Positions 1 to 1,077 of a stretch of 1,077 bases of DNA are shown piece after piece. Source of the DNA: Escherichia coli (GTDB taxonomy: Bacteria; Pseudomonadota; Gammaproteobacteria; Enterobacterales; Enterobacteriaceae); the NCBI RefSeq assembly GCF_003334335.1, contig NZ_QOWQ01000123.1. The stretch is one strand, 5' to 3'. The notes beneath the pieces were generated by a model. The model had not been told where the DNA came from. It saw only the letters and a list, made by a program, of their open reading frames with translations, and ran no database searches. The number at the start of each line of letters is the position of its first letter. Positions within the stretch are counted from its first letter, which is position 1. The translations under genes were made by a program, and so were the position numbers.

Positions 1-344
1 TATGACCACGCATCGGTACGTAACAGATATCCGCTACCTGTGAAATGAATCCATTCTGATTCACCAACGTCACTGGTCTGATGCGACAGCGAGTACAGCC
101 AGGCGTTATCCTTTTCCGTGATATGTGCGGTACTGCAGCGTATGCCGGCAAGGGTTGCAAACGGTGGTAGTGTGCAGGTTGACTGTTGGTCGGATTCCTC
201 CACCACGCGGAGTGAATAACCGTTTTCAGCGACCTTGTTAATCAGTTCAGTGAGATTAACACCATCGACGTCAACGACAATTCGCCCCATGTTCAGTGCC
301 TGCACATTAATTCTGTCGGCTTCCAGCATCAGGGAAAGTTTCAT
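1..344 (-). CDS. Small protein downstream of the toxin, probable YeeW/DUF5983-like; 3'-partial (runs off the window at position 1)
   Basis: ATG at 344..342 overlaps the toxin TGA (minus-strand ...AAACGATGAAAC...). I translated the frame by hand and it stays open for 114 codons to the window edge: [114 protein letters not shown]... A GGAG Shine-Dalgarno lies 5 nt upstream of the ATG. It is absent from the supplied ORF track, presumably because no stop falls inside the window. The family assignment is from recollection of conserved synteny (cbeA-cbtA-yeeW), not from recognising the sequence itself. Confidence 0.6.
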
Positions 345-715
345 CGTTTCTCCGGATGCTTACCCAGGGTAATGTTATTTACCGTTCTGTAATTGTCGCG
401 GGTCATCAGGCCGGTCGCCCGGCGAGCCCGGAGGATATCAATACTGTTTATTAACTGAGAGCGGGGACAAGTGCTGAATCCCGGCTGGTCGGTACGCACC
501 AGCGCGTATTTTTCCACGAGAAAATTCACCGCATCACACAGTGAAATGCCAGCTTCAATATGCTGCTCAATCACACGTTCATCGGCGAACGGTGTGTCAT
601 TCAGTGTAAGGCCGTAATGCTGGCCCAGTAGTCGGGAGAGCAGAGTCTGCCAGATGGTGACGGGAGACGGGCAGCTCGATGCCTCCCGTACGTGTGTATC
701 GGGTAATGTTTTCAT
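341..715 (-). CDS. cbtA: Type IV toxin, CbtA/YeeV (YpjF/YkfI) family, complete 124 aa
   Basis: Complete ORF with ATG at 715..713 and TGA at 343..341. The translation carries the conserved core I recognise from E. coli CbtA paralogs ([57 protein letters not shown]...[34 protein letters not shown]). It sits immediately downstream of a YeeU-family antitoxin on the same strand, which is the canonical gene order. The symbol is family-level; the N-terminus ([26 protein letters not shown]) may be closer to the ypjF-type paralog. Confidence 0.93.
350..353 (-). promoter_or_regulatory. Shine-Dalgarno (GGAG) for the downstream gene, embedded in the last codons of the toxin
   Basis: Minus-strand GGAGAAACGATG: GGAG followed by a 5-nt spacer and the ATG at 344..342. 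The position inside the upstream CDS together with the ATGA overlap indicates translational coupling. Confidence 0.5.
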
Positions 716-804: not shown

Positions 805-1077
805 TTACTTTTTCGTTTCGGGCGTCGGATAAACAGCCAGATAAACGTAACCACAGGAGCCGAGGGTGTCAGCTTTGCAGGTCAGACCTTTTGCATACAG
901 CGTGACGGTATGCTGATGGCGGGGATTCAGTTCACCGCTGGTGAGCATGAGTTCCAGTTGTTTCATCAGCAGCGGAAAGGCCTGGTCCAGGTGGTACGCA
1001 TCTGCATCGCTGAACAGGCCTCTGATACCGGCGCGGTCGGCAAGGTAATGCAGGCGGTTACCCTCCTGCACCAGACG
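805..1077 (-). CDS. cbeA: Type IV antitoxin, YeeU/CbeA (YfjZ/YafW) family; 5'-partial, N-terminus lies beyond position 1077
   Basis: The minus-strand frame is open from the window edge (codons [90 protein letters not shown]) to a TAA stop at 807..805. From memory this matches the C-terminal ~90 residues of E. coli YeeU-family antitoxins (~122 aa) almost residue for residue. The 'M' at 1071 in the ORF track is an internal GTG (Val) codon, not the true start. The symbol is family-level; the exact paralog (yeeU/yfjZ/yafW-like) cannot be resolved without alignment. Confidence 0.92.

Follow-up and report, generated by a model that had tools for sequence, protein, structure and literature searches.

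The DUF5983 gene overlapping the cbtA toxin gene of Escherichia coli: a conserved junction and a possible accessory role in mobile elements

Introduction

Modules of the CbtA type rank among the commonest toxin-antitoxin (TA) loci of Escherichia coli. The median genome holds three copies, and about nine tenths of the copies carry an extra gene. Here we analyse this extra gene in a stretch of 1,077 nucleotides (nt) from E. coli (contig NZ_QOWQ01000123.1 of assembly GCF_003334335.1), called the window in the following, in which all genes lie on the minus strand. The extra gene is, with near certainty, yeeW of the DUF5983 family, and its start codon overlaps the stop codon of the toxin gene.

The closest described relative is YeeW of CP4-44-like islands, also called Aec77 or L0008-like. 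The position directly after cbtA, the ATGA overlap and both Pfam domains are common to it and the window gene. Yet YeeW of E. coli K-12 is truncated to 64 amino acids (aa), while the window gene is of the intact 162-aa type. A survey of TA systems gave DUF5983 as a CbtA partner that is always located downstream (PMC10790755). A preprint of 2026 argued that an AntiFam entry at the locus is a false positive and that a real domain is encoded beside cbtA/cbeA (bioRxiv 10.64898/2026.06.09.728211). The entry, ANF00264, probably equals the N-domain of DUF5983. With tripartite TA systems, e.g. the SecB-like chaperone of TAC, PaaR-PaaA-ParE and omega-epsilon-zeta, the locus shares three co-operonic genes and a tight coupling to the toxin gene. 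On the other hand, no known third component is homologous to DUF5983, whose core domain mostly occurs away from the TA pair.

In the literature we found no functional or experimental study of yeeW or DUF5983. The present analysis identifies a known, annotated gene and no new kind of element; what remains of interest is an abundant TA locus with a third gene that is apparently co-translated. We assign a probability of about 55% to the reading that this real gene of the yeeW type, putatively coupled to cbtA, encodes an accessory or establishment factor of mobile elements and probably no dedicated regulator or neutralizer of the toxin. The identity of the gene and its stop-start junction with cbtA are near certain, while the functional part is what we infer from the distribution of the family.

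Identification of the gene downstream of cbtA

The window matched E. coli chromosomes with up to 99.5% identity across all 1,077 bases, and 4,937 of 5,426 complete E. coli genomes contained window-like DNA, the median being three places in a genome. In E. coli CV839-06 (locus L001 of our set, 99.5% identical to the window) the full open reading frame (ORF) comprised 162 aa and is annotated in RefSeq as "DUF5983 family protein" (WP_000777548.1). The 114 residues encoded in the window were identical to residues 1-114 of this protein. Pfam assigned two domains to the full-length protein, DUF5983_N (PF25638, E=1.2e-28, residues 4-57) and DUF5983 (PF19419, E=6.5e-22, residues 69-162). The original prediction, made from the letters of the window, had proposed a third gene of the DUF5983/YeeW type behind the toxin. 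Both Pfam profiles and the RefSeq product name agree with this, and beyond the window edge the frame, as seen in L001, did not end in a short, unconserved peptide but ran on to 162 aa. DUF5983-like segments occurred at 12,825 places in 4,938 of the 5,426 genomes (~91%) and toxin-like segments at 14,197 places in 5,028 genomes, such that about nine in ten cbtA-like places had a matching DUF5983-like place. We conclude that the third gene is near certainly the known, annotated and near-universal E. coli gene yeeW. The gene has not been overlooked: thousands of genomes carry it in annotated form, and its link with CbtA was already published in the survey and the preprint cited above.

The toxin gene is located at 341..715 (-) and encodes 124 aa according to the ORF list; its counterpart in L001 is named 'TA system toxin CbtA family protein' in RefSeq. 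Read on the minus strand its 3' end is ...CAT CCG GAG AAA CGA TGA. The ATG of the DUF5983 gene at 344..342 has its three bases in common with the toxin gene, the TGA stop of which lies at 343..341, and the resulting ATGA occupies 341..344 (-). GGAG, a Shine-Dalgarno-like element within the last toxin codons at 350..353 (-), precedes the ATG with a spacing of 5 nt. Direct reading thus bore out both the ATGA and the GGAG that had been described for this junction. From the ATG the frame continues for 114 codons without a stop down to base 3 with two bases left over, an event with a chance probability of (61/64)^114 = ~0.004 in random sequence. The window hence holds the 5' 70% of the gene at 1..344 (-), i.e. 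codons 1-114 and 2 bases. The region for DUF5983_N extends from 174 to 335 (-), and the first half of the C-terminal domain (residues 69-114) from 3 to 140 (-) with the motif CSTAHIT..DN, which contains the invariant H74 and D79, as well as W98 and G105. The gene had been noted as missing from the ORF list. It is indeed absent there, but only as an artefact of the window edge, because the tool skips ORFs that run off the source.

Coding status and structure of the protein

In a comparison of 28 orthologues from different Enterobacterales, in which synonymous sites were near saturation, the median ratio of nonsynonymous to synonymous substitution rates (dN/dS) was 0.15 for the whole gene, with values of 0.16 in the N part and 0.14 in the C part. 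For the part of the gene in the window dN/dS was 0.16. In alignments reaching down to 30-40% identity H74, D79, G105, S126 and the C-terminal W162 were invariant, and W98, G124 and R130 nearly so. Homologues formed 1,125 clusters with full-length forms of 162-163 aa being dominant. At 50% identity the family comprised 223 clusters among 1.8 billion representatives and is small in this sense. AlphaFold2 (AF2) predicted a beta-alpha-beta-beta-alpha-alpha-beta unit for the C-domain with a predicted local distance difference test (pLDDT) score >90. The N-domain was predicted as beta-beta-alpha with low confidence from a shallow alignment.

A decaying remnant or a spurious frame could be suspected at this locus because K-12 yeeW is shortened to 64 aa, many DUF5983 representatives are truncated or frameshifted and AntiFam holds entry ANF00264 for sequences of this locus. 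Yet, dN/dS was about 0.15 in both domains, the invariant residues persisted at 30-40% identity, the C-domain model was confident, the largest clusters were full length, and the preprint itself calls the AntiFam entry a false positive. We regard this explanation as extremely improbable, and for the family as a whole it is already refuted by the selection analysis. At the level of sequence comparison, the substitution pattern shows a real protein-coding gene under purifying selection. The open frame, the annotation of 162 aa in near-identical DNA and this selection all agree with the third gene that had been postulated after the toxin.

Searches for a function yielded none. NCBIfam and PADLOC gave no match for DUF5983, DUF957, CbtA or CbeA, PHROGs returned phrog_5003 of unknown function as the sole match, and structure searches in AFDB50 and a viral structure set returned family members, but nothing informative on function. 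Rfam detected no RNA family within the window. The sequence pattern of the N-domain suggested an AbrB/MazE-like swapped-hairpin DNA-binding domain. This candidate was set aside since Pfam gave no such match even at E<=10 and the predicted beta-beta-alpha plus a long helix is not a clear fit. Comparison of the N-domain with the N-region of 188-aa forms from plasmids was not significant (hhalign, E=0.18).

Three observations were made on individual residues and sequences. The last residue of the full-length protein, W162, is invariant even when E. coli sequences are compared with plasmid homologues of 30% identity, usually in an ...F-D-W end, and might be a docking motif. P0152 (163 aa) is a DUF5983 homologue with a systematic exchange of residues, in which Val stands for Ala, Phe/Leu for Ser, Ile/Met for Thr, Leu for Pro, Cys/Trp for Arg and Tyr for His. 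This is a C-to-T pattern in every codon, which points to a gene predicted from reads after bisulfite conversion or a similar deamination rather than to a real variant. In P0001 (214 aa), which scored highest among the representatives, a C-domain segment is present in three partly repeated copies, likely an assembly artefact of its 1.4-kb contig.

Conservation of the overlap with cbtA

A 4-nt overlap by itself is a common junction between bacterial genes. What is above chance here is its conservation across diverged loci. We scanned one genome per species and obtained 49 loci, all with enterobacterial-type gene content. A CbtA homologue preceded the DUF5983 homologue in 40 of them, and in 33 of these 40 loci from other Enterobacterales the DUF5983 start overlapped the toxin stop by 4 nt (NTGA), with proteins only 52-68% identical to that of the window. 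The same 4-nt overlap is present in cbtA-yeeW of K-12, and shorter, C-domain-only versions also followed cbtA with an ATGA (L008-L011, L048, L052, L053). The start codon changed with the overlap being kept, namely to TTGA in L030, L031 and L033 and to GTGA in L032 and L038. Of 38 full-length loci checked, 35 had a purine-rich run of G at a similar distance before the start. No recognisable Shine-Dalgarno element preceded the TTG starts of L030 and L031; translation of DUF5983 should therefore depend on ribosomes coming from cbtA in these two loci. Among the 40 loci the exceptions were L025, L027 and L028 of one lineage with a gap of 13 nt, L026 with a broken toxin gene, L040 with 860 nt between the genes, and L016 and L049, in which the overlap measured 1 nt and 17 nt, respectively. 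Conservation of the overlap across cbtA loci, which had been proposed as a check, was thus found. Co-expression with the TA pair, which had been predicted, would occur by re-initiation at the stop-start junction and is well supported by the conserved overlap even with TTG and GTG starts.

The junction could also be read as a programmed frameshift site that gives rise to a CbtA-DUF5983 fusion protein. A database protein of 279 aa (P0021) indeed comprises CbtA and both DUF5983 domains, and the preprint points to a UniProt entry that unites the three domains and considers programmed frameshifting (bioRxiv 10.64898/2026.06.09.728211). Yet P0021 is a lone sequence from one contig, and GAG AAA CGA TGA AAC has no slippery heptamer. 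The junction is an ordinary stop-start overlap with a Shine-Dalgarno element, and its start varies between ATG, GTG and TTG while the stop is constant, which fits re-initiation instead. Frameshifting is thus highly unlikely.

Several typical enterobacterial cbtA-DUF5983 clusters (L012, L013, L015, L016, L027, L028, L041) were located on contigs labelled as Collinsella sp. metagenome-assembled genome (MAG), Lachnospiraceae MAG or Chryseobacterium sp. 18061. These labels are probably due to binning contamination or mislabelled assemblies.

The stand-alone C-domain on plasmids and phages

With tblastn the protein was matched in 2,650 plasmid records, of which Klebsiella accounted for 2,305; 2,169 of the records were predicted as conjugative. 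Nearly all matches covered the C-domain only with ~34% identity. CbtA was found in 66 plasmid records, i.e. the C-domain occurs in about 40 times more plasmids. Full-length N+C forms were present in 39 plasmid records, and every full-length N+C copy seen followed cbtA. A 188-aa form with a different N-region was encoded on a 290-kb plasmid without a TA pair. In addition, structure predictions of phage proteins include a few members of the DUF5983 family.

Stand-alone plasmid genes such as that of K. pneumoniae pJX10-2 (WP_013214015.1) have a homologous C-domain with the same invariant residues and ~34% identity, and DUF932, antirestriction and DUF957 neighbours in common with the chromosomal cluster. 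Unlike the window gene, most of them lack the N-domain, a nearby CbtA or CbeA and a start-stop overlap with the upstream gene. They are located beside traM or mobA, whereas the window gene belongs to a chromosomal island with no identified origin of transfer (oriT).

Five plasmids with F-type and P/I-type mobility were inspected (L061-L065). In all five the DUF5983 gene was part of a block adjoining relaxosome genes (traM or mobA/traI), and in four it stood directly beside a DUF932 gene. For the fifth, L064, the gene table is incomplete and DUF932 was not listed. In L061, L063 and L065 DUF932 followed by the DUF5983 C-domain immediately preceded the relaxosome genes as a pair; L064 had the same layout minus the listed DUF932 gene, and in L062 from Citrobacter the pair was reversed. 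L061 and L063-L065 are plasmids of Klebsiella, Yersinia and Serratia. In two of the five plasmids psiA/psiB and hok were located in the same stretch on the same strand as DUF5983, and one had antirestriction, methylase and DUF957 genes there as well. No CbtA homologue was detected in the stretches examined of L005, L054, L056 and L061-L065. This position is consistent with the transfer-origin-proximal leading region of plasmids, which has been described as rich in anti-defence and establishment genes (PMC11541004). The main text of that study does not mention the DUF5983 family (Samuel et al. 2024, PMC11541004). As a side observation, members of the DUF932 and DUF5983 families bracket the ArdB-RadC-DUF987-CbeA-CbtA block in chromosomal islands.

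Accessory factor or component of the TA module

The tight coupling had been taken to suggest a modulator of the toxin or an additional module component. If DUF5983 were a true third component of CbtA/CbeA, i.e. a neutralizer made in proportion to the toxin, a chaperone or a regulator, the coupling would ensure that the toxin is never made alone. What speaks for such a role is the 4-nt overlap, which 33 of 40 diverged loci have kept, among them loci with weak TTG starts that lack a Shine-Dalgarno element. The same holds for the matching DUF5983-like place for about nine in ten cbtA-like places of E. coli, the rarity on plasmids of both N+C copies (39 records) and CbtA (66 records), and the listing of DUF5983 as a downstream 'partner' of CbtA in the TA survey (PMC10790755).

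Strict co-occurrence of DUF5983 with the TA pair, on the other hand, was not observed. On plasmids 2,650 records with the C-domain compare to 66 with CbtA, and neither ykfI-yafW nor ypjF-yfjZ of K-12 is accompanied by a DUF5983 gene. The copy at cbtA-cbeA of K-12, yeeW, is cut to 64 aa and keeps only the N part because the island diverges after about codon 55. All three K-12 pairs reportedly behave as toxin-antitoxin pairs, a result attributed to Brown & Shaw 2003. In Yersinia (L051, L055, L057, L058 from pekkanenii, ruckeri and similis) the order of genes is RadC, DUF5983 (C-domain only), CbtA-like, CbeA-like. Here DUF5983 is located upstream of the toxin gene without overlapping it, and the toxin precedes the antitoxin, which is the reverse of the order in E. 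coli. In Leminorella grimontii (L054, 4564-5315) the ATG of a C-domain-only DUF5983 gene overlaps the TGA of a cbeA-like gene (ctATGAac). No CbtA homologue was detected in this locus, leaving an 'antitoxin plus DUF5983' pair without a toxin. Finally, an AF2 model of CbtA and DUF5983 fused by a (GGGGS)6 linker gave no confident complex. With a predicted template modelling (pTM) score of 0.34 and a mean pLDDT of 57 the model was worse than that of DUF5983 alone, and this weak test with a shallow paired alignment of 20 rows is uninformative. Because the C-domain is mostly found without CbtA and in variant chromosomal loci, its wider distribution argues against a dedicated role with the toxin. Together with the lack of an intact copy at the K-12 pairs and the coupling to the antitoxin gene in Leminorella, the data do not support a dedicated toxin modulator, and a third component of the TA pair appears unlikely.

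We therefore return to the accessory factor of mobile elements as the favoured reading. DUF5983 would be the third gene of a co-transcribed cbeA-cbtA-DUF5983-DUF957 unit, placed at the end of a conserved accessory block of mobile elements made up of DUF932, ArdB-like antirestriction, RadC/JAB, DUF987, CbeA, CbtA, DUF5983 and DUF957. Ribosomes ending translation of cbtA would re-initiate on DUF5983, such that the protein is made in proportion to the translation of the toxin. The product consists of two parts, the small DUF5983_N domain and a C-terminal DUF5983 domain of ~95 aa that is an autonomous module of mobile elements. The C-domain would stem from the gene pool of plasmid leading regions and be expressed in chromosomal islands as the distal part of the cbeA-cbtA operon. 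DUF5983 would then be an accessory or establishment factor with a target of its own, located behind cbtA because the TA pair shares a compact operon with it.

Several points weigh against this view. The strong conservation of the overlap with cbtA would also be expected for a function linked to the toxin, and so would the finding that every full-length N+C copy seen followed cbtA. The position close to oriT was seen in the five plasmids inspected. The coupling, moreover, was deduced from the arrangement of bases at the junction.

In a more far-reaching variant the four genes cbeA, cbtA, DUF5983 and DUF957 would act as one unit. Production of DUF5983 would be confined to times of toxin translation, and the protein would work on the toxin pathway or together with it, either as a second safeguard in proportion to the toxin or as a partner effector on host cell division or on defence while the element becomes established. 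The C-domain of plasmids would be the ancestral establishment factor that was recruited. We consider this variant rather doubtful. If DUF5983 did modify the action of the toxin, the two-gene textbook picture of this type IV system would need revision. If its core domain belongs to the factors encoded in the transfer-proximal region of plasmids, which we hold more likely, it becomes a candidate for the large set of uncharacterised establishment or anti-defence genes of plasmids.

Operon and gene neighbourhood on chromosomes

The 3' part of the YeeU/CbeA-family antitoxin gene occupies 805..1077 (-) of the window according to the ORF list. Its start lies beyond the window, as the annotated gene at 7905-8273 of L001 maps from window position 805 to past 1077. 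In L001 and in most of the 49 scan loci the DUF5983 gene was directly downstream of CbtA in the DUF932-ArdB-RadC-DUF987-CbeA-CbtA block. Synteny downstream of cbtA, which the original prediction had named as a check, was thus conserved.

Beyond the window, the DUF957 gene of L001 starts 11 nt after the DUF5983 gene. Right after DUF957 there is a strong terminator-like hairpin (9459-9485, +) with an 11-bp stem including 7 G-C pairs and a T-rich tail, which suggests that a transcript including cbtA and DUF5983 ends there. Between 7400 and 9900 of L001, a range that begins upstream of the antitoxin gene and extends past DUF957, promoter prediction gave no sigma-70-like site on the coding strand.

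The spacer between antitoxin and toxin genes varied from ~60 nt to >1 kb, as seen in L017, L023, L024, L043, L044, L046 and L050 (e.g. 3441 to 4618 in L050). In L008-L011 an extra ORF of 71 aa without a Pfam match was located between the two genes. In K-12 CP4-57 (L004, 2920-3869) the ArdB-like and RadC/JAB genes of the same type of cluster are now named lfgA and lfgB. According to the title of a paper, the protease LfgB cleaves the unrelated antitoxin MqsA (PMC10846083), which would tie neighbours of this block to toxin-antitoxin biology.
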